NCBI GenBank assembly: GCA_013287205.1
Contig: JABDEE010000001.1
Location: 4,882-68,881 of the forward strand
Source of the DNA: Alphaproteobacteria bacterium
Lineage (GTDB): Bacteria > Pseudomonadota > Alphaproteobacteria > UBA9655
Direction of reading: 5' to 3'
DNA length: 64,000 nt
Shown here: positions 1,007 to 61,875 of the stretch, piece after piece
How positions within the stretch are numbered: the first letter of the stretch is position 1
How the letters are laid out: the number at the start of each line of letters is the position of its first letter
Position numbers and translations under genes: made by a program
The notes under the pieces: generated by a model
What the model was told of the DNA's origin: nothing
Seen by the model: the letters and a program-made list of their open reading frames with translations, nothing else
Databases searched by the model: none

Positions 1007-1065
1007 GTGTCATCCTCTGCTGTAGCGGGGACCCAGACTTAAGCATTTTTGATAAAAAATATTTT
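1007..1065. repeat. palindromic-element family, left half only (copy A)
   Basis: GTGTCATCC...GCGGGGACCCAGACTTAAGCATTTTT matches the left arm of the full copy at 61751-61875. The right arm is missing. Confidence 0.8.
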
Positions 1066-1116
1066 TCTACACTTCTATACTGCTACACTATGTCCTGACA
1101 ACTTAGGAGTCCCACA

Positions 1117-1569
1117 ATGAGCGCCCTTTCCAAAACACTCTCTTTCCTCATCCTCACCCTCACAGCCCCGTGCATCGCAAGACCTATCCACCCCATTCTT
1201 CTGAAAACGGAGAAATGTGTCCAGGTCAGCAAAACAACCGTAGAAATCGCACGATGCCACACGGACGCGCAAAAGGACTGGCATAAAGAGCTCAATAGCG
1301 TGTACAAAAAACTGACAGGTACAGCTGAAAATCCAGAAACGAAGGCGGCCTTAAAAGAATCTCAACAGGCTTGGGAGGCCTTTCATAAGAAGGAATCTCT
1401 TTTCATAGCCCACTACTATGAGCGTCAAGGAACCGTGTGGGTCATTGTCGGGGCAGAGATGCAAGCGAATGTCGTGAAAGATCGGGTGAGGGAGCTGTAT
1501 AAAATTCTGGAGTCAACAAACATGGCAGGGAATCCCAACGAAGAATATCGATTTGATAAGGATGAATAA
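1117..1569 (+). CDS. DUF1311 / LprI-like (lysozyme-inhibitor family) periplasmic protein
   Basis: Signal peptide. Cys...ELNxVYKKL...QxAWxxF pattern is typical of DUF1311. Confidence 0.65.
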   Translation: MSALSKTLSFLILTLTAPCIARPIHPILLKTEKCVQVSKTTVEIARCHTDAQKDWHKELNSVYKKLTGTAENPETKAALKESQQAWEAFHKKESLFIAHYYERQGTVWVIVGAEMQANVVKDRVRELYKILESTNMAGNPNEEYRFDKDE

Positions 1570-1671
1570 CGAGACCATTTTCGAGTTAAGGCAAGATCAA
1601 AAAACTTGCCATCCCCGCAAAGGCGCACGGGAAAAAAGATGCTTAAAAATGAGCGTCTCTGAGTGCTCCAA

Positions 1672-1716
1672 TGTCACCCCTACAACCCAGGCTTCGCCTG
1701 GGTCGCGGGGATGACA
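1672..1716. repeat. palindromic-element family, 45-bp mini copy (copy B)
   Basis: TGTCACCCC...ACCCAGGCTTCGCCTGGGT...CGCGGGGATGACA lies between DUF1311 and the polA stop (convergent genes). Confidence 0.75.
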
Positions 1717-1741
1717 AATTGAAGCAACCAGGGACACCCCC

Positions 1742-4444
1742 CTAAATCTCCGCCCAATTTTTGCCCACATCTGCTTCCACGACAAGGGGCACGGACAGGG
1801 TTACAATTGTCTGCATGGTGTTCACCACAAGGGGTTTAACGATTTCGATCTCTCCTTCGGGAACCTCTAGGATGAGCTCGTCATGCACTTGGAGGAGAAG
1901 GGCCGCTTTCAGGTTTTTCTCTTTGAGCAACCGGTCGAGTTTCACCATGGCTTTCGTCACGATGTCTGCATTACCGCCTTGGAGGGGCGCGTTGATAGCC
2001 TGGCGTTCCGCAAAGTTGCGACGGTTGGGATCCCGGCTATGGATATCCGTAATAAAACACCGACGCCCCAAAAGGGTCGTAACGTAGCCGTGCTCTCGTG
2101 CCTCTGTCTTCATCCGCTCCATATAGGCGTGAACGCCCGGGTGGTGAGTGAAATAGGCTTGGATGTAGCTTGCCGCACTCTCTCTTGAAATCCCCAACTG
2201 ACGGGCGAGTCCAAAGGCACTGAGTCCATAGATGATGCCAAAGTTAATCGCTTTTGCCCGGTGGCGTAGCTCAGGTGTGACCTCCGCAAGAGGCACACCA
2301 AAGACTTGGGACGCGGTTTGCGCATGAATGTCCCGCCCTTCCACAAAAGCTTGCTGGAGCTCTGGAATGTTCGCCACATGGGCCAACAGACGAAGCTCGA
2401 TTTGGGAATAGTCGGCAGATAACAAAACCATCCCGGGAGGTGCGACAAAAGCCGAGCGAATCTCCCGTCCCGTTTCGGTTCGAATGGGGATATTCTGGAG
2501 ATTGGGGTCAGAGGAAGCCAACCGCCCCGTTGAGGTCACCGTCATCCCATAAGTCGTATGCACGCGATGGGTGTACGGGTTGATTTGAAGGGGAAGGCTA
2601 TCCGTATAGGTGCTCTTGAGTTTTGCTAATTGGCGCCACTCGAGGATCCTCTCCGCAATGGGAAATCCCGCTTCCGCGAGGGTATCTAAAACATCGGCGG
2701 CCGTGCCGTAAGCGCCCGTCTTGCCTTTCTTGCCCCCCGGTAATTTGAGGACATCAAAGAGGATCTCCCCGAGTTGTTTGGGGGAAGCGACGTTGAACGT
2801 TTGACCCGCTTCTTGCTGAATCTGCTGCTCAAGTTCGCTCAGCCTTTTCTCAAGGCTTGCGCTTAGTTTTTTGAGGATAAGCGGATCGACTTTGATGCCC
2901 TTATATTCCATCTCGAGGAGGATCGGGATCAGGGGGCGTTCCAGGGTTTCATAGACCGTACATTGATGCTCTTGGAACAGTCGAGCCTTCAGAAAGGTGT
3001 GGAGTTGCAGGGTGATGTCGGCATTCTGTGCCGCAAAGGGCAGAACTTTTTCGGGGGGTAGGGTCTCAAAAGACACTTTGCTCCGTCCTGCCCCCACCAG
3101 ATCTTGGTAGGTGAGGATCTCTTGGTTGAGATAAACCTTGGCCGCTTCTTCAAGGGCATGGCCGTGCTTCGTGCCCTCCAACACATAAGAGAGCACCATC
3201 GTATCATCGATGGCGGTGAGGTTCACGCCTTGTCTTTTGAGAAGCAGCCCATCACGTTTGGTGTAGTGGCTAATTTTTAAAATCCCGGGGTCTTCTGCCA
3301 GTGGCTTAAAAAAAGCGAGAACGTGGGCCAGGGAGATTTGAGGAGGTGTATGTCCTGGCGTCAAGAGATCCTGCACTTCTCCCTTATGACCGATGGGGAT
3401 GTAGCAAGCCTTTGAGGGCGTGACACTGAGGGACAGGCCAATGATCTCTGCCGTCATGGCGTCTTGAGAGGTCAGCTCGAGTTCAAAGGCCACCTGCCCT
3501 GTCTCTGTAATAGCTTGGGCCCATTTCTTTAAGGCATCTGCCTCTTGAACCAATTCATACTGAACCGCCGCGGGCCTCTGAGCCCCGGGAGTGGCTTTTT
3601 CAAGGCGACCGAGCAGGGTGTGAAAAGATTGAGCCTTGAGGAAAGTGCTGACTTTTTCGAAATCTAAAGGTTGGACCACAAAATCTTGAAGCAACTCCAG
3701 CATAGGGACTTGCGCATCAAGAGAGACGAGCTGTTTTGCGATGCGGGCATCTTCCTTGTGCGTGAGGAGGGCCTCACGACGTTTGGGCTGCTTGATGTCC
3801 TCTGCGTGGTCCAGGAGATTCTCTAATGTTCCATAGGTTTGGATGAGCTCAGCCGCCGTCTTAACGCCAATCCCTGGCACCCCGGGGATGTTGTCTGAGC
3901 TATCTCCTGCCAGGGCTTGTACATCCACAACTTGCGCAGGCGGGACGCCAAATTTTTCTTGCACCTCCTCAACCCCAATGGCCCGATTTTTCATGGGGTC
4001 AAACATGCGGATGGCGCCACCCACAAGCTGCATGAGATCTTTATCAGAAGATACAATCGTAATGTCGCCTTCCAAAGAACGCGCATAGGTTGCAATCAGA
4101 TCATCGGCCTCGAAACCTTCTTTTTCCACGAAGGGCACACTAAAGGCGGTGCAGGCCTCCCGCACGAGGGAAAATTGGGGAATGAGCTCCGGCGGGGTTT
4201 CCTTCCGGTTGGCCTTGTACTGAGGGTAGATGGCGTGGCGGTAGGTTTCCCGGCTGGCATCAAAGACCACCACCAGGTAATCAGGAGATTTCTCGCGGAG
4301 GAGCTTCATCAGCATGGTGGTAAAGCCCATCACCGCGCCCACAGGAACGCCATCAGCGCGGGTAAGGGGGGGCAAGGCATGGAAAGCCCTAAAGATGTAT
4401 CCTGATCCGTCTACGAGGTAGATTTGCGGCTTATTTTGCGTCAT
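1742..4444 (-). CDS. polA: DNA polymerase I
   Basis: 900 aa with 5'-3' exonuclease N-terminus (GSGYIFRAFHA), 3'-5' exonuclease domain and Pol A motifs (DYSQIELR, QVHDELI). Confidence 0.97.
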   Translation of the reverse strand: MTQNKPQIYLVDGSGYIFRAFHALPPLTRADGVPVGAVMGFTTMLMKLLREKSPDYLVVVFDASRETYRHAIYPQYKANRKETPPELIPQFSLVREACTAFSVPFVEKEGFEADDLIATYARSLEGDITIVSSDKDLMQLVGGAIRMFDPMKNRAIGVEEVQEKFGVPPAQVVDVQALAGDSSDNIPGVPGIGVKTAAELIQTYGTLENLLDHAEDIKQPKRREALLTHKEDARIAKQLVSLDAQVPMLELLQDFVVQPLDFEKVSTFLKAQSFHTLLGRLEKATPGAQRPAAVQYELVQEADALKKWAQAITETGQVAFELELTSQDAMTAEIIGLSLSVTPSKACYIPIGHKGEVQDLLTPGHTPPQISLAHVLAFFKPLAEDPGILKISHYTKRDGLLLKRQGVNLTAIDDTMVLSYVLEGTKHGHALEEAAKVYLNQEILTYQDLVGAGRSKVSFETLPPEKVLPFAAQNADITLQLHTFLKARLFQEHQCTVYETLERPLIPILLEMEYKGIKVDPLILKKLSASLEKRLSELEQQIQQEAGQTFNVASPKQLGEILFDVLKLPGGKKGKTGAYGTAADVLDTLAEAGFPIAERILEWRQLAKLKSTYTDSLPLQINPYTHRVHTTYGMTVTSTGRLASSDPNLQNIPIRTETGREIRSAFVAPPGMVLLSADYSQIELRLLAHVANIPELQQAFVEGRDIHAQTASQVFGVPLAEVTPELRHRAKAINFGIIYGLSAFGLARQLGISRESAASYIQAYFTHHPGVHAYMERMKTEAREHGYVTTLLGRRCFITDIHSRDPNRRNFAERQAINAPLQGGNADIVTKAMVKLDRLLKEKNLKAALLLQVHDELILEVPEGEIEIVKPLVVNTMQTIVTLSVPLVVEADVGKNWAEI

Positions 4445-4478
4445 TTAGAGTACTTCCTGTTTAAATGTTCACGCTTCA

Positions 4479-4528
4479 TTGTCATCCCCGTACTCTTCGT
4501 TGTCATCCCCGCCTTCGCGGGGGCGACA
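4479..4528. repeat. palindromic-element family: terminus fragment plus 28-bp hairpin (copy C)
   Basis: TTGTCATCCCCGTACT, then TGTCATCCCCGCCTTCGCGGGGGCGACA, between the ctaE stop and the polA start. Confidence 0.8.
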
Positions 4529-4536
4529 TCCTTGAT

Positions 4537-5310: not shown

Positions 5311-5315
5311 AGATC

Positions 5316-5463: not shown

Positions 5464-5516
5464 AATGCCTCCTTATGATCCCTGAGCCCACAAGATATTT
5501 TTGTTTACAGAATCAT

Positions 5517-5545
5517 TTGACTTTTTTGTCCAATTTGTCTATAAT
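5517..5545 (+). promoter_or_regulatory. sigma70-type promoter of the phd/PIN operon
   Basis: TTGACT (5517-5522), 17-bp spacer, TATAAT (5540-5545), about 30 bp upstream of the ATG at 5574. Confidence 0.6.
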
Positions 5546-5573
5546 GAGTCATACTCAATGGTTGGAGAGAGTT

Positions 5574-5831
5574 ATGCGTACAATTTCTGCGACAGAAGCA
5601 AAACAGTCTTTAGGGATGATGATTGACATCTCCCAGAGGGAGCCTGTTGTCATACAACGTCAACAGAGGGATATTGCCGTTCTCCTCTCTATGCATGACT
5701 ATGAACAATTAAAAGGGGGGCAAATTGAAGCCTTCACTGTTTTTTGTGAGCAGATGGCTCAAAAAGCCAAAGAAAGGGGTCTCACTGAAAAAAAATTGGA
5801 GGCGTTGTTAGAAGATGGCGCGGAAGAGTAG
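5574..5831 (+). CDS. type II antitoxin, Phd/YefM family
   Basis: MRTISATEAKQSLGxxID...EPVVIQR is the Phd/YefM N-terminal signature. GGAGAGA RBS precedes the ATG at 5574. The longer ORF from 5475 has no RBS. Overlaps the downstream PIN gene. Confidence 0.8.
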   Translation: MRTISATEAKQSLGMMIDISQREPVVIQRQQRDIAVLLSMHDYEQLKGGQIEAFTVFCEQMAQKAKERGLTEKKLEALLEDGAEE

Positions 5832-6237
5832 ATTTGTTGTTGATACAAATATCTTCATTAGCCAACTTCTCTTACCCTCTTCACTCCCAGGAAAAGCATT
5901 TCGGAAAGCCCTCTCTTGCGGAATCCTTTTATTTTCAGAAGACATCCTTCACGAACTCGCTGACGTTTTAGGAAGAAAGAAATTTGACCATTACCTTTCT
6001 CTTGAAGAACGGCAAGAATTTTTCCGTTACCTTTCTTTAATTGGCGAAGTTGTACACAATATCACGCCCTTAAAGGCGTGTCGGGATCCAAAAGATGATA
6101 AATTCCTAAGCCTCGCTGTTTGCGGTCAAGCAACCTTTCTTTTGACAGGGGACAATGATCTTCTTGTTCTTGATCCTTTTAGGGATGTACGTATCCTTTC
6201 TTGTGCGACATATTTGGGCGACCCCCCTTCCGAGTGA
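5815..6237 (+). CDS. PIN-domain toxin (type II TA)
   Basis: FVVDTNIFIS ... LTGDNDLLVL supply the acidic PIN residues. 17-nt overlap with the antitoxin gene. Confidence 0.85.
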   Translation: MARKSRFVVDTNIFISQLLLPSSLPGKAFRKALSCGILLFSEDILHELADVLGRKKFDHYLSLEERQEFFRYLSLIGEVVHNITPLKACRDPKDDKFLSLAVCGQATFLLTGDNDLLVLDPFRDVRILSCATYLGDPPSE

Positions 6238-21588: not shown

Positions 21589-21723
21589 AGTCACGCCATA
21601 GCCCGCTTTCGGCCGCTATAGCCTTTGGCGGTAGCGGACTATAGCAGGCGACGGCCATTCGGAAACTTTGACTCTTTTCTAAAATCCTGTAGACTAGGCC
21701 CTGTGAACAAGATTCAACAACAC

Positions 21724-21900
21724 GTGTCATCCCCGACTTAGAAACTCTCGCCCCCGACTTAATCGGGGGCATAGAGTTTCTTGAGCGGGGACCCAGGGCC
21801 ACACAAAAATTCTTTCTTACCTTGGTTTCTGGGTCCCCGATCAAGACCTTCTAACCCCCCGCAGGGCGGGGGCTAAGAAGGCCTAAGTCGGGGATGACAC
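21724..21900. repeat. palindromic-element family, full-length copy D (177 bp core)
   Basis: 18-bp perfect termini GTGTCATCCCCGACTTAG/CTAAGTCGGGGATGACAC. Inner GGGGACCCAG...CTGGGTCCCC plus two side hairpins. Outer GTAGAC..GTGAACAA arms extend to about 21683-21928. Confidence 0.9.
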
Positions 21901-21952
21901 AGGTTTTTGTTCACGCAGTCTACAAAAACAATCATTTTTTCAGGAGGTTAGC

Positions 21953-22971: not shown

Positions 22972-23182
22972 GTGTCATCCCCGACTTAGACTTTCTTACC
23001 CCCGACTCGCCACGGCGTAGCCTTTGGCGTAGCTGGGCAAGTCGGGGAGTTAGAAAGACTTGATCGGGGACCCAGAAAGCCAAAGTATGAAAGAATTTTT
23101 GTGTTGCCCTGGGTCCCCGGTCAACAAGTCCTAACATCCCCAATAAATTGGGGACGAAGGACTTGTAAGCCGGGGATGACAC
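22972..23182. repeat. palindromic-element family, full-length copy E (211 bp)
   Basis: GTGTCATCCCCGACTTAG...GGGGACCCAG...CTGGGTCCCC...CCGGGGATGACAC, between the convergent genes asd and mutS. Confidence 0.9.
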
Positions 23183-25768: not shown

Positions 25769-25828
25769 ACACTATGACCGGTTGTGGACGGGGTTACTTG
25801 AGGCTCCGCAAACAAAATTCAAAAACAC

Positions 25829-25901
25829 GTGTCATCCCAGGCTTAGTGCCTCTTTTCCCCCGACTTGATCGGGGGCGAGAGTTTCTAGTCGGGGATGACA
25901 C
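25829..25901. repeat. palindromic-element family, short copy F (73 bp)
   Basis: GTGTCATCCCAGGCTTAG...CCCCCGACTTGATCGGGGG...CTAGTCGGGGATGACAC. Shares flanking AACAARATTCAAMAACAC and TTTGTTCACG..TCTAC arms with copy D. Confidence 0.85.
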
Positions 25902-25920
25902 AGGGCTTTGTTCACGTAAT

Positions 25921-29778: not shown

Positions 29779-29790
29779 TTTCCCCCATTT

Positions 29791-29818
29791 TGTCATCCTC
29801 GCGCAGGCGGGGATGACA
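29791..29818. repeat. palindromic-element family, 28-bp hairpin (copy G)
   Basis: TGTCATCCTCGCGCAGGCGGGGATGACA lies 13 bp after the stop of 29122-29778. Confidence 0.8.
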
Positions 29819-29931
29819 GGGGGAAATGAGTATGACACGGAGGGCGCTCGAATTTACACACACTTTCCCCTTGCCCCTCTCTTGGAAAATATCCTATGGT
29901 TTCCTCATCTATAGATAGAAAAGGAAACACC

Positions 29932-31329
29932 ATGGCAGACTATGATCTCATTGTTGTTGGCGGAGGCCCTGGAGGGTATGTTGCGGCGATTCGTGCAAGT
30001 CAACTGGGGCTGAAGACAGCCGTGATTGAGAAGGCGCATTTGGGAGGGATTTGTCTGAATTGGGGATGTATCCCGACAAAATCTTTATTGCGCACAGCGG
30101 AAATTAACCACCTCCTCCATTCTCTTGAGGCTTACGGCTTTAAGGCGGACAATATTTCTTTTGATTTTAAGAAAATTATTGAGCGTTCCCGCGGTGTCGC
30201 GGACCGGCTTGCGAAGGGTGTGGCCCATCTCATGCGTACCAATAAGGTGACGGTGATTGAAGGGGAAGCCCAACTCAAAGGTCGTCAGGGAAAAGATATT
30301 CAAATTACGGTTAACGGGCAACAAGAGGTGACCGCCTCCCATGTGATCCTCGCCACCGGGGCCCGGGCGCGCCCTCTCCCGAACCTTGAAGCGGATGGGA
30401 AATTGGTGTGGACCTATAAGGAAGCCATGACACCCGAAGCATTGCCTAAATCTATTCTCGTCCTTGGATCAGGTGCCATTGGCATTGAGTTTGCGAGCTT
30501 CTATTCCATGATGGGGTCATCGGTCACAGTTATCGAAATGCAGGATCAAATCTTACCCGTTGAGGATAAAGAAATTTCAGCCCTCGCGCGTAAATCCTTT
30601 GAGAAGCAGGGCATCACAATTCATACGCGTTCAACGGTCACAGCTTTAAAGCGCAACGCGGATTCGGTGACGGTGAGTCTTGATGTGGAAGGGACATCCC
30701 AGGAAGTGACGGTGGATCGTGTGATCTTAGCCGTTGGCATTGTGGGCAATACGGAAAACTTAGGATTGGAAAATACAAAGATCGTTGTTGAAAAAGGCCA
30801 CATCAAAACGAACGAGATGTGTCAAACAAATGAGCCCGGGATTTATGCCATTGGCGACGTGGCGGGGGCCCCCTGGCTCGCCCATAAGGCAAGCCATGAG
30901 GGGGTCTTGTGTGTTGAACATATGAAGGGGCTGTCTTCAGCCCATCCTCTCAAAAAGACAGATATTCCCGGGTGCACCTATAGCACCCCCCAAATTGCAA
31001 GTGTCGGCCTCACAGAGGACGCGGCAAGGGCTGCGGGCAAGTATGACGTGAAGGTGGGCAAATTCCCCTTCCTCGCGAATGGCAAAGCCTTGGCCATGGG
31101 GGAACCGGAGGGACTTGTCAAAACCATCTTTGATGGGAAAACGGGGGAGCTTTTAGGGGCTCATATGATTGGGGCAGAAGTGACGGAGCTCATCCAAGGA
31201 TTTTGCCTTGCCAAGACCCTTGAAGCCACCGAGCAAGACATTATCAAAACGATTTTCCCTCATCCCACGCTTTCTGAGATGATGCACGAATCCGTACTGA
31301 ATGCCTTTGGCCACTCGATACATTTTTAA
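29932..31329 (+). CDS. lpdA: dihydrolipoyl dehydrogenase
   Basis: DLIVVGGGPGGYVAA, redox CLNWGCIPTK, and C-terminal HPTLSE. Start at 29932 after an AAAGGAAA RBS. Confidence 0.95.
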   Translation: MADYDLIVVGGGPGGYVAAIRASQLGLKTAVIEKAHLGGICLNWGCIPTKSLLRTAEINHLLHSLEAYGFKADNISFDFKKIIERSRGVADRLAKGVAHLMRTNKVTVIEGEAQLKGRQGKDIQITVNGQQEVTASHVILATGARARPLPNLEADGKLVWTYKEAMTPEALPKSILVLGSGAIGIEFASFYSMMGSSVTVIEMQDQILPVEDKEISALARKSFEKQGITIHTRSTVTALKRNADSVTVSLDVEGTSQEVTVDRVILAVGIVGNTENLGLENTKIVVEKGHIKTNEMCQTNEPGIYAIGDVAGAPWLAHKASHEGVLCVEHMKGLSSAHPLKKTDIPGCTYSTPQIASVGLTEDAARAAGKYDVKVGKFPFLANGKALAMGEPEGLVKTIFDGKTGELLGAHMIGAEVTELIQGFCLAKTLEATEQDIIKTIFPHPTLSEMMHESVLNAFGHSIHF

Positions 31330-31339
31330 GGATAGAACA

Positions 31340-31963
31340 ATGATGCTCAAGAAATCTGCTCTCTTTTTACCCTTTCTGCTTTCGGGATGCGTGGCTCCTC
31401 TTGTTGTGGGGGGCGCAGGAGCGCTGTTGACGACCCATGCGGCACAGGAGCGGGGACTCAGCGGCTCTGTGAGCGATCAAGTCCTTCGCTATCAACTCAA
31501 TCAAGCTTTGGATGGTGGTTTGGCAGATGCGAGCGGTCTTGAGCTGACTGTCTTTAAAGGCCGCGTCCTTCTTGCCGGTATTGTTGCGAATGAACAGGTC
31601 AAACAACAAGCTGTTTGTATTGCCGGTAAGGTAGAGGGTGTGCGAGATATCATCAATGGGATGGATACGCATGGGGAATACAACCTCGCTGATTATTCAC
31701 GAGATGGATGGATTACGACAAAGCTGAAGACGATTCTCTTTGCGGATGAAGATGTGAGAGCGCCAGACTATATCATTCGCACTTTTGGGGGGACGGTTTA
31801 TATTTTTGGAACGGCCCAAAATCAGCAGGAGATCCAAAAAGTCATTGGCCATGCGTCGGAGATTAGCGGTGTGAAACGGGTTCTTCCGTTGATTGAACTC
31901 TGTGGGGCACCGCCGGTGAGTGGGGGGCCGGGAATGCCTCCAAAAATGTCATCCCCGAGTTAG
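31340..31963 (+). CDS. BON-domain lipoprotein (OsmY-like)
   Basis: LLSGC lipobox and two BON-like segments. The last 6 codons and the stop lie in a palindromic-element fragment (31946-31965). Confidence 0.7.
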   Translation: MMLKKSALFLPFLLSGCVAPLVVGGAGALLTTHAAQERGLSGSVSDQVLRYQLNQALDGGLADASGLELTVFKGRVLLAGIVANEQVKQQAVCIAGKVEGVRDIINGMDTHGEYNLADYSRDGWITTKLKTILFADEDVRAPDYIIRTFGGTVYIFGTAQNQQEIQKVIGHASEISGVKRVLPLIELCGAPPVSGGPGMPPKMSSPS

Positions 31964-31974
31964 AATATAAAAAA

Positions 31975-32165
31975 TGTCATCCCCGCGACCCGGCTACGCC
32001 AAAGGCTTCGCCGTGGCGAGAGGCGGGGACCCAGCCTTAAAACCTTTTTTATTTTGCGTAACACAAAAATATGTGTATTGAGTTGTAGAAGAAAAACTAT
32101 CAAGTCTGGGTCCCCGCCTCTCGCCACGGCGAAGCCTTTGGCGTAGCCGGGTCGCGGGGATGACA
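31975..32165. repeat. palindromic-element family, full-length copy H (191 bp), preceded by a terminus fragment at 31946-31965
   Basis: TGTCATCCCCGCGACCCGGCTACGCCAAAGGCTTCGCC...GGGGACCCAG...CTGGGTCCCC...CGCGGGGATGACA. Confidence 0.9.
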
Positions 32166-37567: not shown

Positions 37568-37618
37568 GTGTCATCCCCGATCGTCCTCTTGTCCTCGGAC
37601 TAGAAAAGACTTGTGACA
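37568..37618. repeat. palindromic-element family, degenerate copy I
   Basis: GTGTCATCCCCGATCG...GACTTGTGACAAA lies just after the accD stop. The right terminus is eroded. Confidence 0.55.
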
Positions 37619-39828: not shown

Positions 39829-39933
39829 ACGTGCTATCAAATAACTATTCTGAAAATTTGACTCCCCAAAAAATTTCCGTATAATGGGGGCAGCAAACAA
39901 GGGGAGGATTGTATCTTGGAAAAAATTGAACCT

Positions 39934-40773
39934 ATGGGTACCCGTTATTTAGATCCAACAAATGATGTTGCTTTTAAGCGGCTCTTTAGCGATAAACCGC
40001 GTCTCAAAGATTTTCTGAATGCGATTTTTCCTGCAGACTGGGCGCCGATTGCTGATCTTGACTTTATTCCCCTTGAAGAAATGCCTGCCGTTTTTTTGGG
40101 GCGCCGGAGTGTTTTTGATCTCAGATGTACGGATGAGACGGGGAAAGTCTACATTGTTGAAATGCAAAATCGCTCCCAAGATGCCTTTTTAAATCGCATC
40201 CAATGTTATGCGTCTCATGCCTATGTTGCTCAAGCCGTTAAGGGAGGGGATCATAGGAACCTCATGCCGGTGATCGTGCTCTCCCTTACCTCCGACAAAC
40301 TTTTTGAGGACGATGTCCCATGCGTGAGTTACCATTGGGATGTGGAACAAACGACGAAGAAGCGCCTTTTGATGGCGATTTCCTATATTTTTGTGGAGCT
40401 TCCCAAATTTAAAAAGACAGAAGCAGAACTCCAGGATATTCGGGACGAATGGCTCTATTTCTTTGCCAATTGGGAACATCTGAAAGCCCCGCCCGAGGAT
40501 CTCAAAGACCCGCTCGTTTTAAGCGCTTACGAGACCATGGAACAATTTAATTGGACCCCGGGGCAATATGATGCCTACTTCAGAATGCGCCTCGCCATAG
40601 AAGCTGACCAGCATGAGATCGAGAGGTCTGAGGAGAAAGGAAGGGCAGAAGGAAGAGTGGAAGAAAAAAAAGAAATTGCTCACAATCTACTTGCAAGAGG
40701 TATGAATCCTGAGGAAATTGCGCGTGTGACCAATCTCCCAGTGGAAGAAATTCGGAAATTTCAGGAGGTTTAA
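39934..40773 (+). CDS. Rpn-family recombination-promoting nuclease / putative transposase (PD-(D/E)XK)
   Basis: LDPTNDVAFKRLF...VYIVEMQ motifs. C-terminal helical EKGRAEGRVEEKKEIA region. Confidence 0.75.
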   Translation: MGTRYLDPTNDVAFKRLFSDKPRLKDFLNAIFPADWAPIADLDFIPLEEMPAVFLGRRSVFDLRCTDETGKVYIVEMQNRSQDAFLNRIQCYASHAYVAQAVKGGDHRNLMPVIVLSLTSDKLFEDDVPCVSYHWDVEQTTKKRLLMAISYIFVELPKFKKTEAELQDIRDEWLYFFANWEHLKAPPEDLKDPLVLSAYETMEQFNWTPGQYDAYFRMRLAIEADQHEIERSEEKGRAEGRVEEKKEIAHNLLARGMNPEEIARVTNLPVEEIRKFQEV

Positions 40774-43713: not shown

Positions 43714-44733
43714 ATGTCCAAGTTTTTAGATCTTTTTCAGGGAAGACAGTCGTCTTCTCCGCCCATCTGGTTCATGCGACAAGCCGGTCGATCTCTCCCA
43801 GAGTATCGCGAGGTTCGAAAGCAATATCCCAATTTCTTAGATCTTTGTTATACCCCAGAGCTTACCGCTCAGGTGACCCTGCAGCCTGTTGAACGGTTTG
43901 GCTTAGATGCGGCCATCCTTTTCTCAGATATCCTTGTTGTTCCGCAAGCGCTTGGGCTGGAGCTGTCTTTTGAAGAGGGAGCGGGACCGAAGCTCTCTCC
44001 TCTTTTCCTCTCTTCGTTGGATGGTGCGGTTTCCGACGATGGTTTTTCAGAAACGCTGGCGCCTATTTACGAAGCCATTCGGTTAATAAAGGAAAAGCGC
44101 CCCTTTCTTCCCCTTATCGGGTTCGCAGGAGCACCCTGGACCCTGGCCCTTTATATGCTGGAGGGGCAAGGGAGCCGAGATTTCGCCAACGCCAAAACCC
44201 AAGCATTTCAGAATGAAGAAAGGTTTGAGGACCTCTTAGAGGTTCTTGTCTTTGCTTCTGCATTGCATCTCATTGAGCAAGTCAAGGCTGGTGCTGATGT
44301 TGTTCAGCTTTTTGATACTTGGGCCGGACTCTGTCCTGCCACTCACTTTGAGAGGTGGATCGTGGAGCCTCACAGGGCCATTGTGCGCGTGTTGCGAAGA
44401 GAATTTCCTGATCTTCCTATCATTGGTTTCCCCAAAGGGATCGGAGCGAACCTTGTCATCTATGCTCATGAAGTTGGTGTGTCAGCTTTAAGCCTTGATG
44501 CGGGGGTGCCGCTTCCTTGGGTGGTCGAATTTCCCAAGAAATTGATCTTTCAGGGAAATCTGGATCCTCTTCTTCTGGTTGCAGGAGGAGATTCCCTCAA
44601 ACAGGCGATTCAAATGATTCATGAAGACATGGAGGGCAGGCCTTACATTTTCAATCTGGGCCATGGGGTCCTTCCCCAAACCCCTCTTCAGAACATTGAG
44701 GACTGTGTGAAATGGGTGCGGGCTTTGGCGTGA
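43714..44733 (+). CDS. hemE: uroporphyrinogen decarboxylase
   Basis: PIWFMRQAGR...FSDILV motifs. 339 aa. Confidence 0.95.
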   Translation: MSKFLDLFQGRQSSSPPIWFMRQAGRSLPEYREVRKQYPNFLDLCYTPELTAQVTLQPVERFGLDAAILFSDILVVPQALGLELSFEEGAGPKLSPLFLSSLDGAVSDDGFSETLAPIYEAIRLIKEKRPFLPLIGFAGAPWTLALYMLEGQGSRDFANAKTQAFQNEERFEDLLEVLVFASALHLIEQVKAGADVVQLFDTWAGLCPATHFERWIVEPHRAIVRVLRREFPDLPIIGFPKGIGANLVIYAHEVGVSALSLDAGVPLPWVVEFPKKLIFQGNLDPLLLVAGGDSLKQAIQMIHEDMEGRPYIFNLGHGVLPQTPLQNIEDCVKWVRALA

Positions 44734-45818
44734 AAAAGACTGCTGTTGTTCTCCTCAACTTAGGAGGTCCTCTTTCCCCCGAAGGTGTCTATCCTTTTCT
44801 CTTTAGCCTCTTTTACGATCCGTTGATTCTCACGCTTCCGAATCCTTTTCGGTATCTGCTCGCAAAGCTTATTGCGCGCGTGCGCCTTCCCAAAGCGCGA
44901 GCGATTTATGCTGTGTTGGGGGGGGCGTCTCCTCTTCTTGAAAACACGCAAGCCCAGGCAATGGCTTTGGAAAAGGAGTTGGGGACGGGATATCGTGTCT
45001 TTGTGGCCATGCGTCATGCCCCGCCTGTTTCACGTGAAACAGTTGCGAAGGTGAGGGCGTATAACCCAGATCAAGTTGTCCTCCTTCCTCTCTATCCTCA
45101 GTATTCGACCACCACCACAGAATCGTCTTTGCGAGCATGGAAGGAGGCCGCGAAGGGGTGGGAGGTGCCAACACACGTGATCGAGTCCTACCCCGCCCAG
45201 GAGGGGTTCCTAGAGGCCATGAAGGAGCTGATTGGTGAGCAGGTGGAAAATCCCAGCATCCTTTTTGTGGCCCATGGATTACCAGAGAAAACAATTAAAA
45301 GGGGAGATCCTTATCAGGCACAGGTGGAGGAGACGGCGAGGGCGCTGGAGAGGAAGCTTCTAAACAACTGGAATCAAACAGGGTGTCATCCCCGCGCAGG
45401 CGGGGACCCAGACTTGAATTCTTTTTGTGCAACACAAAAAGAATGTGTTGAGAGTAAAGAAAAACTGTCAGGTCTGGGTCCCCGCCTGCGCGGGGATGAC
45501 ACTGATGCTTTGGTAACCGGTCATCAATTCCTGATGACTATTTGTTACCAAAGCCGTGTGGGTCCTCTCAAGTGGATCGGCCCCTCTCTGGAGGAAGAAA
45601 TTTTAAAGACCGCTGCCGAAAAACGCCCCCTTGTGGTTGTTCCGATTTCTTTTGTTTCTGAGCATTCGGAAACGTTGGTGGAGCTTGATGTGATGATGCG
45701 GGATCTCGCCTTAAGCCACGGGTGCCCTTCCTATATCCGGATTTCGACTGTTCAGACCCACCCCTTGTTTATCAAGGGGTTGGCTTCTCTTGTTGTCACC
45801 TCTATAAAGGCCTTATGA
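44712..45818 (+). CDS. hemH: ferrochelatase carrying a 40-codon in-frame repeat-element insertion
   Basis: LLNLGGP...HGLPEK...YQSRVGPLKW...SEHSETLVELD motifs. Residues CHPRAGGDPDL...GPRLRGDDT are encoded by element copy J. An alternative GTG start lies at 44730. Confidence 0.9.
   Translation: MGAGFGVKKTAVVLLNLGGPLSPEGVYPFLFSLFYDPLILTLPNPFRYLLAKLIARVRLPKARAIYAVLGGASPLLENTQAQAMALEKELGTGYRVFVAMRHAPPVSRETVAKVRAYNPDQVVLLPLYPQYSTTTTESSLRAWKEAAKGWEVPTHVIESYPAQEGFLEAMKELIGEQVENPSILFVAHGLPEKTIKRGDPYQAQVEETARALERKLLNNWNQTGCHPRAGGDPDLNSFCATQKECVESKEKLSGLGPRLRGDDTDALVTGHQFLMTICYQSRVGPLKWIGPSLEEEILKTAAEKRPLVVVPISFVSEHSETLVELDVMMRDLALSHGCPSYIRISTVQTHPLFIKGLASLVVTSIKAL
45383..45502. repeat. palindromic-element family, copy J (120 bp) inside the hemH coding sequence
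   Basis: GTGTCATCCCCGCGCAGGCGGGGACCCAGACTTGAA...GGTCTGGGTCCCCGCCTGCGCGGGGATGACAC. Length is a multiple of 3 with no stop in the hemH frame. Confidence 0.92.
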
Positions 45819-51466: not shown

Positions 51467-51675
51467 GTGTCATCCCCGACTTAGACCTTCTTAGCTCCCG
51501 CCTTGTGCGGGAGGTTAGAAGGTCTTGACCCGGCTACGCCAGAGGCTACGCCGCGGCGAGTCGGGGCCCCAGAGTTGCAGAAAAATTCTTTCATACCTTG
51601 GCTCCTGGGTCCCAGGTCAAGTGCCTCTAGCCCCCGACTCGTCGGGGGGGAAGAGGCACTAAGCCTGGGATGACA
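51467..51675. repeat. palindromic-element family, full-length copy K (209 bp)
   Basis: GTGTCATCCCCGACTTAGACC...CGGGGCCCCAG...CTGGGTCCCAGG...CCTGGGATGACA, between the convergent genes dnaE and chaB. Confidence 0.88.
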
Positions 51676-53914: not shown

Positions 53915-53915
53915 A

Positions 53916-56783: not shown

Positions 56784-58430
<1,647 letters not shown>

Positions 58431-58444
58431 TTAATCTCCTTCTT

Positions 58445-58732
58445 TTATGCGATGATTCCCATGATGTCTGACTCTTTCATGACGAGGTAGTCTTTGCCAT
58501 CCAGTTTGATTTCCGTGCCGGACCATTTGCCGAACAAGATCCGATCGCCTGCTTTGACATCCAGAGGGGTCACTTTGCCATCCTCTGAGCGTGTGCCTGA
58601 TCCGATTGCGATCACTTCCCCTTCCATCGGCTTTTCTTTCGCCGTATCTGGGATAATAATTCCTCCGGCCGTCTTTTCTTCTTGTTCGATGCGACAGACA
58701 AGAACGCGATCATGTAGGGGTCTAAATTTCAT
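58445..58732 (-). CDS. groS: co-chaperonin GroES
   Basis: [12 protein letters not shown]...[13 protein letters not shown] signature. Confidence 0.97.
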
Positions 58733-58772
58733 CTTTTCCTCCTCCGATGGTGGATCCTAATAAGTAGTTGAT

Positions 58773-58799
58773 CTAGCACTCTTTGTACGAGAGTGCCAA
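58773..58799 (-). promoter_or_regulatory. CIRCE element (HrcA operator)
   Basis: CTAGCACTC-N9-GAGTGCCAA compared with consensus TTAGCACTC-N9-GAGTGCTAA. Lies between the promoter and the groES ATG. Confidence 0.85.
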
Positions 58800-58800
58800 A

Positions 58801-58829
58801 TATATAGCGCGTCCCCTTTTTTTTGTCAA
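58801..58829 (-). promoter_or_regulatory. groESL sigma70-type promoter
   Basis: On the minus strand: TTGACA (58829-58824), 17 bp, TATATA (58806-58801), immediately upstream of CIRCE. Confidence 0.7.
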
Positions 58830-58850
58830 GAAAGGCGGATGGCCATTTCG

Positions 58851-58930
58851 GTGTAGCGGTGTAGCGGTGTAGCGGTGTAGCGGTGTAGCGGTGTAGCGGT
58901 GTAGCGGTGTAGCGGTGTAGCGGTGTAGCG
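58851..58930 (+). repeat. tandem octamer array (GTGTAGCG) x10, perfect
   Basis: 80 bp with no mismatches. Starts 21 bp upstream of the groESL -35 hexamer. Confidence 0.97.
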
Positions 58931-58999
58931 GAAGGAAAAAGAATACGAAAAAACATGTCAATTCTTTTCTCCTCTTATTTCTTACTTTTCTGACTAACT

Positions 59000-59023
59000 G
59001 CTCCACCGCTAAACTGCTATACC
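59000..59023 (-). repeat. three degenerate octamers (GCTCCACC GCTAAACT GCTATACC), inverted relative to 58851-58930
   Basis: Same unit as 48064-48095. Separated from the 10x array by a 69-bp A+T-rich spacer. Confidence 0.6.
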
Positions 59024-59119
59024 GTGTTGTAATAAATCGTCATGATCAGTGAGAGGGAGATACACGGAATTTGTAGTATGCTGTGCTTCATAAAAGAACC
59101 TTTAAAGGCAAATGTATCC

Positions 59120-60052
59120 ATGACGCCTCCTTATTCAGCTTCTGTGAGAAAACCCAAGTTCCCTGTCGCCCCTTTGTCGCGTCCTGCGGTGCAGCACCTT
59201 CAAAAAACCCTTGCGACCTCTGTGCGTTGCCAAGGCGTTGGCGTACATTCAGGCAATACGGTGACCATGACGCTTTCGCCTGCGCCTGCAGGAAGTGGGA
59301 TGACGTTTGTTCGCACAGATCTTGGAAATATTGCTCTTAAAGCCTCCTGGAAAACAGTCGTTGATACACAGTTTTGTACGACCATTGGTGATCACAAGGG
59401 TGTCACTGTTTCGACGGTTGAACATCTTCTCGCGGCTCTGGCAGCCAATGGTATTGACAATATTCGCGTGGAGCTTGATGGCCCAGAGCTTCCCATTATG
59501 GATGGGTGCTCTCATTTCTTCTCGACTCTTCTCGAGCAAGCAGGTACCCGGGATCAGCAAGCGCCGCGCCGGATCCTCCGGGTGTTGAAAACGGTTTCCG
59601 TTGCAGAGGGCAGCCGAACGGCGACCCTCTCTCCCTCTCCTTTTTACGAACTCTCTGTTGAGTTTGACTTTGGGGAGCGGGCGTCGATTGAAACACAGCA
59701 TCTCACTTTTCGCCCTTCACGAGACAACTTCCTTAATCTCATTGCACCTGCGCGTACCTTTGGGTTGCTGGCGGATGCGGAAAAATTGCGTGCCGTAGGC
59801 TTAGCAAAGGGAGCCTCCCTTGAGAATACGGTGGTCTATGATGGGTCCAAGGTTTTGAATGAAGAAGGTTTGCGCTACACGGATGAATGTGCCCGCCACA
59901 AGATCCTCGATGCCATGGGAGACCTTCACCTGGCTGGAGGGCTCATCCTTGGTAAGTTCCACGGTGTGCGTGCAGGCCATGGTCTGCATTATAAGCTCCT
60001 TCAGGCTCTTTTTGCGGATCCAACGCAGTATTCAGTAACGAGTGGTCAGTGA
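59120..60052 (+). CDS. lpxC: UDP-3-O-acyl-N-acetylglucosamine deacetylase
   Basis: QKTLxxxVxxxGVGVHSG...TFVRTD...VEHLLAAL...HKxLDxxGDL motifs. Start uncertain (59042 or 59120). Confidence 0.92.
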   Translation: MTPPYSASVRKPKFPVAPLSRPAVQHLQKTLATSVRCQGVGVHSGNTVTMTLSPAPAGSGMTFVRTDLGNIALKASWKTVVDTQFCTTIGDHKGVTVSTVEHLLAALAANGIDNIRVELDGPELPIMDGCSHFFSTLLEQAGTRDQQAPRRILRVLKTVSVAEGSRTATLSPSPFYELSVEFDFGERASIETQHLTFRPSRDNFLNLIAPARTFGLLADAEKLRAVGLAKGASLENTVVYDGSKVLNEEGLRYTDECARHKILDAMGDLHLAGGLILGKFHGVRAGHGLHYKLLQALFADPTQYSVTSGQ

Positions 60053-60156
60053 TCAGATCTTTTGGCTGAGTCGTTATCAAATTCTCATATGCTAAGAGTT
60101 TGTTAAACCATTTTCTCTAGACTCATTCTCATCAATAGGAATAATGGAGAGAACAT

Positions 60157-60360
60157 ATGTCTAAACCATCTCTTAAAATAGTGGCGCTCGCCCTTACTTT
60201 TTTTGCCTGCACAGGTGAACAAGTCAGTGCTGACTTTATAGGGTGTAGAGAGTTTCCATCCGAATGCATTTGTTCTTCAGGCGCTCGTGCCTATGCGGAG
60301 TGGGGCAGAGAGTGTCGGAACAATAGGATAAACCCATTTAGTTGCTATTGCGAAGACTAA
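60157..60360 (+). CDS. hypothetical small secreted Cys-rich protein (67 aa)
   Basis: GGAGAGA RBS and signal peptide. Six Cys in the ~42-aa mature part. Confidence 0.45.
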   Translation: MSKPSLKIVALALTFFACTGEQVSADFIGCREFPSECICSSGARAYAEWGRECRNNRINPFSCYCED

Positions 60361-60382
60361 GTAGAGGAGATATTTCCGTTCC

Positions 60383-61756
60383 TTATCTCCCAAACATCCC
60401 CCAGGACAGCAGCACAAACAACGGTAAGAGGACGGCCAAGGACCAGGCCATGTATCCAAAGAAGCTGGGCATTTTGACGCCATAGCTTTCAGCTACGGTT
60501 TTGACCATGAAGTTCGGGGCATTGCCGATATAAGTCATGGCGCCCATAAAGACGGATCCTAAGGAAATCGCCACCAGTGTCTGAGAGAGGGTCGACATCA
60601 AGATGTTTGCGTCTCCCCCCGCCATGTGGAAAAACACAAGGTAGGTCGGTGCATTATCCAGGAAGGAAGACAGGGTCCCGGAGAGCCAAAAGTACATGCT
60701 ATTTTGAGGCTGTCCATTGGCGCTTACAAGGGCAATGAGGGAGGAGAGGGCGCCATTCTTTCCTGCATCTAAAATGGCTGTGACGGGGAGCACGGTCATA
60801 AAAATGCCAAAGAAGAGTTTGACGACCTCCTGAAGTGGTTCCCAAGAAAAGTGATTCACTTGCCGAATATGGGGGGCGGTAAAGTGGTAGGAAATGAAGC
60901 TCAAGAGAATGAGGCCGCCATCCCTCACAAGATTCTGAAGATCAAGGGAGGTTCCGCTAATCGTAAAGGTAATCTCAGGTTCCCACACGCCACTGAGAAT
61001 CACAAGTCCCATGACACCGAGGAAGAGAAGCGCGTTATCGCCTCCCTTCATCGTCACGAGAGGGGTGGAGCGTAACGGTGAAATTTTCTCCACCTCACGC
61101 ATCACAAAGCGATCCACGCCATAAAAAATGAGGAGAATGGCCGCGGCGGTGCAGAGCATGGGGAGGGCCAAGGATTGCATTGTCCACAAGAAATCGACGC
61201 CATTTAGAAATCCGAGGAAGAGGGGAGGGTCGCCCAGAGGCGTGAGGGCGCCTCCCACATTTCCCACCATAAAAATGAAGAAGATCATGTGGTAGGCTTG
61301 ATGTTTGCGCGTCGCGTTCATCTTGAGAAAGGGGCGGACGAGGAGCATGGCGGCACCTGTGGTGCCTACCCATCCGGCTAGCAAAGTGCCGACCGCTAAA
61401 AAGCATGTGTTCATAAAGGGGGTTGCTGGGGACCTTACGGAAATTTGGATGCCGCTGGCAATGGTGTAGAGTGTGCTCATCATGATGATGAAGGGGAGAT
61501 AATGGTGGAGGAGCATTCCTAAAATCGCCTGATGAGTCAGGGACCATCCAAATTCTGTGCTGAGACTGAGAACAGTGATCATGGCCCAGGCCATTGCCAC
61601 TTTCCCGTAGTGTTTTTCCCAAAACCGCATGGAGATCAGGGGGAGGAACGCAAGAGACAGAAGCATGCCGAGAAAGGGGATGACCCAGGTGAGCTCCAAG
61701 GTGTGGCCTGGGAGGATGCTTGGGTTTGCGGAGAGGGGGGAGTTCCAACTTGTCAT
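60383..61756 (-). CDS. ArsB/NhaD-superfamily ion transporter (putative Na+/H+ antiporter)
   Basis: Polytopic membrane protein (WVIPFLGMLLSLAFLP...FWEKHYGKV...GNAPNFMVK). Only the C-terminal 457 codons of the 806-aa ORF are credible. The proposed ATG lies in the terminus of element copy L. Confidence 0.75.
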   Translation of the reverse strand: MTSWNSPLSANPSILPGHTLELTWVIPFLGMLLSLAFLPLISMRFWEKHYGKVAMAWAMITVLSLSTEFGWSLTHQAILGMLLHHYLPFIIMMSTLYTIASGIQISVRSPATPFMNTCFLAVGTLLAGWVGTTGAAMLLVRPFLKMNATRKHQAYHMIFFIFMVGNVGGALTPLGDPPLFLGFLNGVDFLWTMQSLALPMLCTAAAILLIFYGVDRFVMREVEKISPLRSTPLVTMKGGDNALLFLGVMGLVILSGVWEPEITFTISGTSLDLQNLVRDGGLILLSFISYHFTAPHIRQVNHFSWEPLQEVVKLFFGIFMTVLPVTAILDAGKNGALSSLIALVSANGQPQNSMYFWLSGTLSSFLDNAPTYLVFFHMAGGDANILMSTLSQTLVAISLGSVFMGAMTYIGNAPNFMVKTVAESYGVKMPSFFGYMAWSLAVLLPLFVLLSWGMFGR

Positions 61757-61875
61757 CCCCGCGAAGGCGGGGACCCAGACTTGAGCATTTTTTAAAAAGT
61801 TCCTAACAAAAAAATTTTTTGAAATCAGAGACAAAAAGAATTTAAGTCTGGGTCCCCGCCTTCGCGGGGATGACA
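61751..61875. repeat. palindromic-element family, copy L (125 bp)
   Basis: TGTCATCCCCGCGAAGGCGGGGACCCAGACTTGAGC...TTTAAGTCTGGGTCCCCGCCTTCGCGGGGATGACA. Confidence 0.92.

Follow-up and report, generated by a model that had tools for sequence, protein, structure and literature searches.

Repetitive extragenic palindromes (REPs) of the CGTC-1 class were described by Di Nocera, De Gregorio & Rocco (2013, BMC Genomics 14:522; PMC3733652) as hairpin units that carry the tag CGTC, or its variants TGTC and CCTC, ahead of an 8-bp stem starting with A,T, a loop of 4 nt (loop sizes of 4-5 nt are given in the paper) and a short unpaired CCA tail. Head-to-head dimers predominate, the class occurs chiefly in Alphaproteobacteria, and the repeats lie mostly downstream of open reading frames (ORFs), between convergent or unidirectional genes, with some intragenic copies and with no associated transposase; in H. 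neapolitanus the dimers sit inside an outer palindrome (PMC3733652). The same paper equates CGTC-1 with the dRS3 repeats of Neisseria and with RPE-6 of Rickettsia conorii, one of the Rickettsia palindromic elements (RPEs). The dRS3 repeat is a 20-bp inverted repeat, ATTCCC-N8-GGGAAT (Parkhill 2000; Bentley 2007, PMC1797815), which Bentley et al. proposed to serve as a recombinase site (PMC1797815). Here we analyse a dense family of nested palindromic repeats in a 64-kb stretch of contig JABDEE010000001.1 from an alphaproteobacterium. This stretch, which is one part of the genome and has ~49% G+C, is referred to throughout as the window, and the 12 loci at which the repeats occur in it are lettered A to L (Table 1). 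The family is probably a lineage-specific member of the CGTC-1 class.

The repeat unit and its class

The building block of the family is a 28-nt hairpin composed of an unpaired tag TGTC, an 8-bp stem ATCCCCGC/GCGGGGA(C/T), a 4-nt loop G-N-A-G and a tail CCAG. This anatomy, which runs TGTC, ATCCCCGC, G-N-A-G, GCGGGGAC, CCAG, was uniform over 60 units drawn from the window, from the related contig L121 and from 12 stretches of the related genome Ga0207148, and TGTC precedes the stem in all clear units, that is, in the 24 terminus matches of the window and in the 60 units. The repeats share with CGTC-1 REPs the TGTC tag, the AT start of the stem, the CCA-type tail, dimers with outward tags, placement at gene ends and the lack of a transposase flanked by them, and copies D and F lie within an outer palindrome, as do the H. 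neapolitanus dimers.

The unit extends far beyond this lineage. The pattern TGTCATCCCCGC-N4-GCGGGGA was found at no fewer than 120 loci (at least 120, labelled L001-L120) when 185,579 species genomes (GTDB) were searched, where ~4 are estimated to occur by chance. Among the matches listed, these loci belong to Alpha-, Beta-, Gamma- and Deltaproteobacteria, Patescibacteria, Planctomycetota, Fibrobacterota, Bacteroidota, Chloroflexota, Gemmatimonadota, Omnitrophota and others, and the 28-nt unit is also present in 51 viral contigs of IMG/VR (L127-L177), often directly past capsid genes. Positions that the pattern left free are conserved in the 136 units among the matches listed: the loop reads G-N-A-R, with G in 135/136 and A in 130/136, and the tail reads (T/C)CCA, with its C, C and A in 124/136, 82/136 and 82/136, respectively. 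Most of the cross-phylum units listed, moreover, have an inverted partner 20-100 nt away. The conservation of the free positions, together with the inverted partners, indicates that the cross-phylum loci are true relatives. A covariance model trained on 130 units of other genomes, none of them from this lineage, recovered both arms of copies L (E 3e-13) and J (E 2e-12) in the window, followed by G (9e-6), C (2.6e-4) and A (0.011); units with big loop inserts score poorly, as was to be anticipated.

On these features we put at roughly 0.8 the probability that the family is a lineage-specific member of the CGTC-1 tagged REP class and, as such, a selfish palindromic repeat. A reading of the same DNA made from its sequence alone (the sequence-only reading) had found no resemblance to any known family. 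That view of the family is not upheld: the 28-nt unit, in its simple form, has the defining features of CGTC-1 and belongs to a described, very widespread class, the correspondence lying at the level of the superfamily. A literature text search for the literal strings TGTCATCCCCG and CGGGGATGACA returned only primers and unrelated matches.

Copies, dimers and nested modules

With up to one mismatch and on both strands, the terminus TGTCATCCCCG occurs 24 times in the window, as against 1.1 +/- 1.1 times in dinucleotide-preserving shuffles, none of 100 of which reached 24. The 12 loci comprise six complete head-to-head pairs (D, E, H, J, K, L), five single symmetric units of 28-71 bp and one truncated copy (A), and elements and pieces together amount to ~1.45 kb (2.3% of the window). 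In complete copies the terminal inverted repeats are perfect, 11-31 bp in length, with TG at the start and CA at the end. All 12 loci of what the sequence-only reading had called a dense family of at least 12 copies or fragments are thus confirmed, as is its description of a modular, multi-copy, non-coding palindromic family, the variable side hairpins of which prove to be loop modules that give rise to a cloverleaf. Several of its start positions are one base low (1007 for 1008, 4479 for 4480, 21724 for 21725 and so on), and three of the matches, at 4480, 31947 and 61886, represent no elements but tandem partial duplications of one terminus and its flank. The inverted termini are not strictly the same in all copies, as had been said: A is truncated with a degenerate right side, the right terminus of I is degenerate (TGTGACA) and that of C is GGGGGCGACA. 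All six long copies, as well as truncated A, contain the inner palindrome CGGGGACCCAG/CTGGGTCCCCG, and the outer arms GTGAACAAGATTCAACAACACG ... CAGGTTTTTGTTCACG are indeed common to D and F. The short forms C, G, B, I and F (28, 28, 45, 50 and 71 bp) had been taken to retain the termini only, which is so for C and G, whereas B, F and I also hold hairpin modules or their remnants.

A complete element consists of two units head to head, with tags outward, around an A+T-rich core. All six complete dimers and the truncated one in the 12 loci have their tags outward. The core is non-palindromic and asymmetric, has 22-38% G+C (compared with ~49% for the window and higher values for the units), and falls into two homologous length classes, one of 32-33 nt in D, E, K and L121 and one of 62-71 nt in H, J and L as well as in A. 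In the simple dimers J, L and H the arms pair with each other into a single 31-60-bp hairpin. Each unit loop of D, E and K is replaced by a ~45-nt side hairpin, RCTTAG-stem-(CCCCC..GGGGG)-stem'-CTTGAY, and the fold is a four-way cloverleaf that has two side hairpins and two stems of 17 bp each, an outer one and an inner one that is closed by the core. The short forms are single units with a tag on both feet, TGTCAT...ATGACA, and a stem ATCCCCGC/GCGGGGAT. In the dimers the inner arm reads GCGGGGAC; stem pair 1 is A.C in 15/16 units and pairs 2-7 are paired in 94-100%.

Loops are GAAG, GCAG or GGAG in 26 simple units, a 9-nt variant in seven and nested modules of 32-75 nt in ~25. The unit apex reads GCGAAAGC/GCGAAGGC, the former of which we take to be one of the unusually stable DNA mini-hairpins of Hirao and colleagues. 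Among the modules is a discrete 32-nt sequence, M3 (CCCRGCTACGCCARAGGCTWCGCCGYGGCGAG), which occupies three kinds of host site. It lies in plain-unit loops (in H, both arms; in L194, 6224), at the tip of the inner CCCCG..CGGGG hairpin (E; L190 2737) and at the junction past the side hairpin (K; L187 8722; L181; L185). Two otherwise near-identical units, L190 2737-2840 with M3 and L181 13165-13235 without it, constitute a filled and empty pair for this module.

Outer palindromes are real only for D, F, G and one four-copy subfamily of Ga0207148. Complementarity between the two flanks was no better than that of permuted flanks (3.58 vs 3.67 matches of 12), and on this count insertion into host hairpins was rejected as a general rule. 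The four simple dimers of the Ga0207148 subfamily (L182 132-254, L187 1279-1402, L193 5535-5658 and L185 5259-5382, the last in reverse) have ~20-nt flanks in common, AGTGGTGTTCTCCTCCCGAT ... GCATAGGGAGTTTTGCAGAG, which contain a CTCCC/GGGAG outer stem and represent an extra outer layer and not a longer repeat.

Tandem arrays of half-copies were observed on the tag side of units, in the window (the three partial terminus duplications of Table 1) and also in L192 (6361-6480), L006, L011, L038, L101, L046 and others; among the matches listed, ~17/144 cross-phylum units bear them. Each piece consists of a few flank bases plus TGTCATCCCCG(CG..), the period is 16-28 nt and up to five pieces stand ahead of a full unit (L192). 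At the junctions in L046 and L192 flank and loop share microhomology, which slippage during replication of a hairpin would be expected to produce. No mention of such arrays was found in the text of Di Nocera et al. (PMC3733652). A CRISPR-like reading of the arrays was rejected, as the 'spacers' repeat the flank identically, a sign of tandem duplication rather than of distinct spacers. Longer tandem arrays of units, with periods of ~54, 186, 182 and 298 nt, occur in other genomes and viral contigs (L033 1995-2126, L142 7502-8006, L053 and L118), unlike the isolated dimers of the window.

Folding and covariation

Long copies are predicted to fold with z scores of -8 to -24 relative to shuffles, with RNA or DNA parameters (D -12, E -11, H -17 with DNA and -24 with RNA parameters, J -17, K -8, L -12), and the short forms B, C, F and G with z scores of -3.5 to -6 (B -4.4 with DNA parameters; G -6.1); the degenerate copies A and I fold no differently from shuffles (z -0.4 and +0.9, DNA parameters). 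Covariation was assessed by aligning 16 units that bear side hairpins and counting their pairs. The side-hairpin stem is 97.9% paired, and 6/9 pairs have changed on both sides, with up to four Watson-Crick types per position, a degree of covariation unmatched by 500 shuffles or by any slid register. The unit stem shows an exchange of CG to AU at one position. With the A.C position left out, G-U accounts for 6 of ~33 non-Watson-Crick cells, as for random mismatches, and this lack of a G-U excess implies that complementarity is kept symmetrically on both strands. The covariation fits upkeep of the palindrome at the DNA level at least as well as it fits selection on RNA.

Gene context and an insertion in hemH

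At eight of the 12 loci the distance to a stop codon is 8-42 nt, and three of these eight occupy convergent spacers, LprI(DUF1311)-polA, asd-mutS and dnaE-chaB, in agreement with the earlier statement that copies sit mostly at gene ends, which had named the three convergent pairs correctly. Among the exceptions to placement at gene ends are copy L, between divergent genes, and copy J, inside hemH.

Copy J encodes CHPRAGGDPDL...LGPRLRGDD within hemH, 39 aa of the protein being derived from the element. The hemH ORF is intact, with 368 aa, and both the frame and the conserved C-terminal residues are kept after the insert; in Pfam and PDB alignments the ferrochelatase is matched in two parts, residues 9-214 and residues 277-366. 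In an alignment with seven homologues of 316-324 aa, a ~52-aa segment (about 45360-45540) is unique to this HemH. The segment is absent from all 119 HemH homologues listed besides the window's own protein, every one of which is shorter than 368 aa (297-354 aa, save one 257-aa sequence that covers 81% of the query), and from solved ferrochelatase structures, while a second assembly has the same hemH insertion. The other ~13 aa may represent an outer layer of the element, as is suggested by flanks that show weak pairing and correspond to the outer stem in the Rfam WsnRNA46 model discussed below. The proposal that the repeats can be translated in either orientation and behave like RPEs is borne out by the gene-end copies and by a real in-frame insertion in hemH. 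Repeat sequence also bears on two further ORFs: the partial copy at 31947-31963 gives the dolP-like gene its end, ...MSSPS-stop, and copy L has, in its left terminus CGGGGATGACA, an ATG (61754-61756) that shares the reading frame of the CitMHS_2 ORF, lies 18 codons ahead of the Pfam domain and is a candidate start codon only.

Related genomes and candidate partner enzymes

Two junctions in relatives, with 71-76% DNA identity in the flanking genes, lack the element. The fabH-asd gap is 10 bp in L122 (Asd identity 78%) versus 665 bp here, with copy D, and ctaE and polA overlap in L121 (80% identity), leaving no spacer, versus a distance of 92 bp here, with copy C. The comparison with relatives that had been suggested for the family thus yields empty sites at both junctions. 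In relatives at 86% Asd identity no element was found within 70-290 bp either side of asd, where synteny is not kept. A metagenome scan for the lineage-specific arm matched 20 stretches, 12 of them from the Joint Genome Institute (JGI) genome Ga0207148, in which ~25 further dimers occur in the 12 stretches with no genes shared with the window; copies are also present in L121. Direct repeats of at least 4 bp, indicative of target-site duplication, were sought at the ends of 33 complete copies and found in none (0/33).

Annotation of the ~55 ORFs of the window revealed no Y1, IS110, DDE or RAYT (REP-associated tyrosine transposase) enzyme. The only gene with a transposase name encodes a PD-(D/E)XK 'transposase' family protein (PF12784, PDDEXK_2; E 5e-37) at 39916-40773 (+). 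Repeats are absent from the ends of this gene, and none of the 197 loci (~1.6 Mb) next to units has a homologue of it; on both grounds it was rejected as a partner of the repeats. The earlier assertion that the window contains no transposase thus stands in so far as none is linked to the repeats, but not to the letter, given the PF12784 gene. In the 120 genome loci, the 150 ORFs listed beside units include no Pfam family more than twice and are housekeeping neighbours; in the 51 viral loci, 104 ORFs are phage structural neighbours, with capsid six times and a single rve integrase domain, and no IS110 or Y1 enzyme. Locus L084, where inverted units stand 1.4 kb apart, was considered as a possible insertion sequence (IS); its ORF gave no recurrent transposase signal. 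Indeed, no IS with the same terminal inverted repeats was found in the window or in the ~1.6 Mb of loci next to units.

Other features of the window

The window encodes polA, ctaE, plsX-fabH, asd, mutS, ftsB, lpdA, accD and hemE-hemH, followed by dnaE, chaB, groEL, lpxC and fabD-fabG, a gene content that fits an uncultured alphaproteobacterium, and the closest named relatives of Asd are records labelled 'MAG: Alphaproteobacteria bacterium'. Coordinates of the repeats are collected in Table 1.

Table 1. Positions, make-up and surroundings of the repeat copies and related pieces in the 64-kb window.
Feature	Positions	Strand	Make-up	Placement
Copy A	1008-1113		Truncated degenerate dimer; left REP variant TGTCATCCTCTGCTGTAGCGGGGACCCAG (1008-1036), long A+T-rich core; right REP degenerate	Right side runs into LprI start codon
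REP remnant, degenerate	1607-1631	+	TGCCATCCCCGCAAAGGCGCACGGG	
Copy B	1672-1716		45-bp single symmetric unit; small loop hairpin CCCAGGC-TTCG-CCTGGG	Convergent LprI-polA spacer; 25 nt to polA stop
Partial terminus duplication with flank, tandem	4480-4500	+	21-nt unit	Adjoins copy C
Copy C	4501-4528		28-bp single unit; right terminus GGGGGCGACA	Between same-strand ctaE and polA, 8 nt past ctaE stop
Copy D	21703-21915		Core element 21725-21899, 175 bp; short-core head-to-head dimer, one side hairpin per REP loop, cloverleaf; outer palindrome 21703-21724 / 21900-21915	
Copy E	22973-23181		209-bp heterodimer, short core reversed; 32-nt M3 at 23006-23037, reverse, within left side hairpin	Fills convergent asd-mutS spacer
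Copy F	25808-25916		25830-25900, 71 bp, single unit with chimeric side hairpin (left half resembles K-right, right half resembles D-left); outer arms as in D	20 nt past ftsB/DivIC stop
Copy G	29779-29826		29791-29818, minimal 28-bp palindrome at apex of host hairpin TTTCCCCC...GGGGGAAA	12 nt past a stop codon
Partial terminus duplication with flank, tandem	31947-31974	+		Last codons and TAG stop of dolP-like gene 31301-31963
Copy H	31975-32165		191-bp near-perfect palindrome, long core; 32-nt M3 in both REP loops (31989-32020 forward, 32120-32151 reverse)	
Copy I	37569-37618		Degenerate 50-bp single unit TGTCATCCCCG...CTTGTGACA	14 nt past accD stop
Copy J	45384-45501	+	118-bp simple dimer, long core	In frame within hemH (44712-45818)
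Copy K	51468-51675		208-bp cloverleaf dimer, short core; M3 at 51529-51560	Convergent dnaE-chaB
Copy L	61751-61896		61751-61875, 125 bp, simple dimer, long core; then partial terminus duplication 61876-61896	Divergent CitMHS_2 transporter gene (minus strand) and fabD

Two regions of the window that are separate from the repeats were also seen. A 57-bp exact direct repeat occurs at 12899-12955 and 17030-17086, the second copy being the 3' part of tRNA-Ser(GCT) (17029-17120, minus), and between the two lies a ~4.1-kb island of low G+C with a 610-aa ORF (13213-15045) that has no Pfam match and an AbiEi antitoxin gene (15304-15921). The island, in which no integrase was seen, looks like the remnant of an element integrated at tRNA-Ser(GCT). 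A Phd/YefM antitoxin and PIN-domain toxin pair at 5475-6237 adjoins ctaE, and at the corresponding side of ctaE L121 has another toxin-antitoxin pair (YoeB/ParE plus SocA).

Discussion

We propose that the elements are non-autonomous selfish DNA, composite palindromes similar to REPs and to the REP-derived dimers known as REPINs, in which the replicating entity would be the head-to-head pair of units, tags outward, around its A+T-rich core. Copying to new sites would proceed as single-stranded hairpin DNA and would be carried out by an enzyme supplied in trans; this step is drawn by analogy with REPINs, and we hold it to be a tentative suggestion with somewhat less than even odds. Insertion would leave no target-site duplication, and copies would be kept mainly where they are tolerated, be it past stop codons, in spacers between convergent genes or, now and then, in frame at a surface-tolerant place in a protein. 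After insertion they would be co-transcribed as very stable stem-loops, and they may stabilise or process the 3' ends of mRNA. The palindrome would be kept perfect at the DNA level, either through copying from a hairpin intermediate or through correction of one arm by the other.

It should be emphasized that several observations weigh against this proposal or parts of it. No mobilising enzyme was identified, which makes the transposition step pure inference, and the partner gene could lie elsewhere in the genome, beyond the 64-kb window. Filled and empty alleles of one site in close strains were not seen, the relatives having 71-76% DNA identity. The orientation of the core showed no bias with respect to GC skew (the relative's long cores had diverged too far to be oriented) and thus lends no support to lagging-strand targeting of the IS200/IS605 type. 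Finally, the inner arms in this lineage have A.C as their first stem pair, so that only 7 bp of the '8-bp stem' are effective in them.

It could also be argued, although we think it unlikely, that the nesting records the insertion of modules as small as 32 nt at the apices of single-stranded DNA hairpins, again without target duplication. Such a reading draws on the unit found in a host apex, the side hairpin in the unit loop, M3 in three apices and the half-copy arrays on the tag side. The preservation of the unit, near letter for letter, across phyla and in phage contigs would then point to one widespread enzyme acting in trans. If this were true, a lineage with many layered variants would be a good place to find that enzyme.

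Among the other explanations for the family, the least improbable is that the repeats are cis signals selected by the host, either as stabilisers or terminators of transcript 3' ends or as binding or recombination sites, as proposed for dRS3 and NIMEs (neisserial intergenic mosaic elements). The location of 8/12 copies 8-42 nt past a stop codon, with three in convergent spacers, is what such signals would lead one to expect, as are the very stable folding, the covarying stems and the frequent position of the unit after capsid genes in viral contigs, and Bentley et al. have proposed a recombinase-site function for dRS3. Against this hypothesis, however, one copy is in frame within hemH and another occupies a divergent 5' region, truncated, chimeric or degenerate copies are numerous, and the orthologous spacers of relatives do without the elements; the covariation, which lacks a G-U excess, is equally expected from copying of the palindrome at the DNA level. 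The hairpins are, furthermore, followed by no T-run but by the tail CCAG, and the reading as intrinsic terminators was rejected for this reason. We consider host-selected signals an improbable account of the family as a whole.

Selfish propagation of tagged hairpin units also has to be distinguished from the spread of a classical MITE (miniature inverted-repeat transposable element), a deletion derivative of a DDE-type IS with TG...CA ends that is moved by the transposase of that IS. The perfect terminal inverted repeats, with their TG start and CA end, conform to this model, and so do copies 109-210 bp in size whose conserved internal core comes in two lengths. Yet the 33 complete copies are devoid of target-site duplications of 4 bp or more, and the supposed terminal inverted repeat is a hairpin unit in its own right, which is found as a single unit too and in many phyla. 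An IS or transposase with such ends was present neither in the window nor among the 254 ORFs by units elsewhere, and the literature on the CGTC class reports no transposase (PMC3733652). The label of MITE, which the sequence-only reading had used in the form 'MITE/RPE-like', is consequently not upheld in the strict sense, and we regard this origin as very improbable. That the repeats are WsnRNA46-type genes for small RNAs, expressed and acting in trans, is scarcely credible: WsnRNA-46 has been reported as an expressed multi-copy RNA of Wolbachia, and Rfam model RF02625 (WsnRNA46) aligns with copy J over all 151 model positions (51.7 bits, E 2e-10) and with copy L at 38.0 bits, but both scores are under the gathering score of 65.3, the best match (J) is inside a protein-coding gene, a near-perfect palindrome matches on either strand, and the similarity is more simply explained if WsnRNA46 is a CGTC-type repeat.

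The assignment made here changes how the family is to be viewed, as an apparently new element is now filed under the described CGTC-1 class. Those who annotate genomes of this lineage should expect 2-3% of the DNA to be palindromic repeat and contigs that may break at copies, and should be aware that the repeat may form the ends of ORFs, as with the ~52 aa in hemH, the stop of the dolP-like gene and the in-frame ATG ahead of the transporter. The CGTC class is without a known mobilising enzyme, and how such repeats spread is a question that this lineage can serve. The layered variants, the filled and empty pair for M3 and the covariation confined to Watson-Crick pairs provide raw material on the spread of CGTC repeats and not an answer to it.

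Comparison with known systems

With the REPINs built from GTAG REPs, which are mobilised by RAYTs (Nunvar 2010; Bertels & Rainey 2011), the elements have in common an inverted pair of tagged hairpins with a short spacer, the lack of target duplication and a high copy number. They differ from them in that the tag is TGTC and not GTAG, and in that neither a RAYT nor another Y1 transposase was found in the neighbourhood of any copy. The nesting of modules calls to mind the small dispersed repeats of cyanobacteria, which Elhai and colleagues are said to have described in 2008 as ~21-32-nt modules nested in other repeats or hairpins; these have other sequences and belong to another phylum, and the resemblance is a lead only.

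Rfam was among the collections proposed for comparison, and a scan of the window in gathering mode reported tRNA only; no family thus exceeds its threshold, whereas WsnRNA46 matches J and L below it. The WsnRNA46 model has the same plan as the elements, TGTCATCC...GGGATCCAG - spacer - CTGGAUUCC...GGATGACA plus a short outer stem. It differs in the arm interior, GAGUGGCUGACACUGG versus GCGCAGGCGG, and in scores that fall short of the gathering threshold. The simplest reading of this similarity in sequence is that WsnRNA46 would itself be a CGTC-type repeat.

RPEs are likewise palindromic repeats of Alphaproteobacteria that occur in frame inside functional genes, just as copy J adds ~52 aa to ferrochelatase; in the window, by contrast, 1/12 copies is intragenic, and the link to RPE-6 is by statement in PMC3733652. 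As that paper equates CGTC-1 with dRS3 and RPE-6, the relevant relative in Neisseria is dRS3/NIME and not the Correia element to which the family had been likened. The window sequence, ATCCCC-N8-GGGGA(T/C), is one base per arm away from ATTCCC-N8-GGGAAT of dRS3, and in both systems G+C-rich repeats flank an A+T-rich segment (50-150 bp in Neisseria; cores of 22-38% G+C here). Neisseria, however, has long alternating arrays with >100 RS families, compared with isolated dimers or single units and two core types here, and phage integration into the repeat is known for Neisseria only.

The CGTC-1 class itself thus remains the closest described system. From its published members the repeats depart in that many of their units carry nested loop modules of 32-75 nt, as opposed to the 4-5-nt loops of the paper, and in that they have a conserved asymmetric core in two length classes and an A.C at pair 1 of the inner arms. 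Peculiar to this lineage are the layered architecture, the two-size conserved core, the 32-nt nested module and the insertion in hemH.

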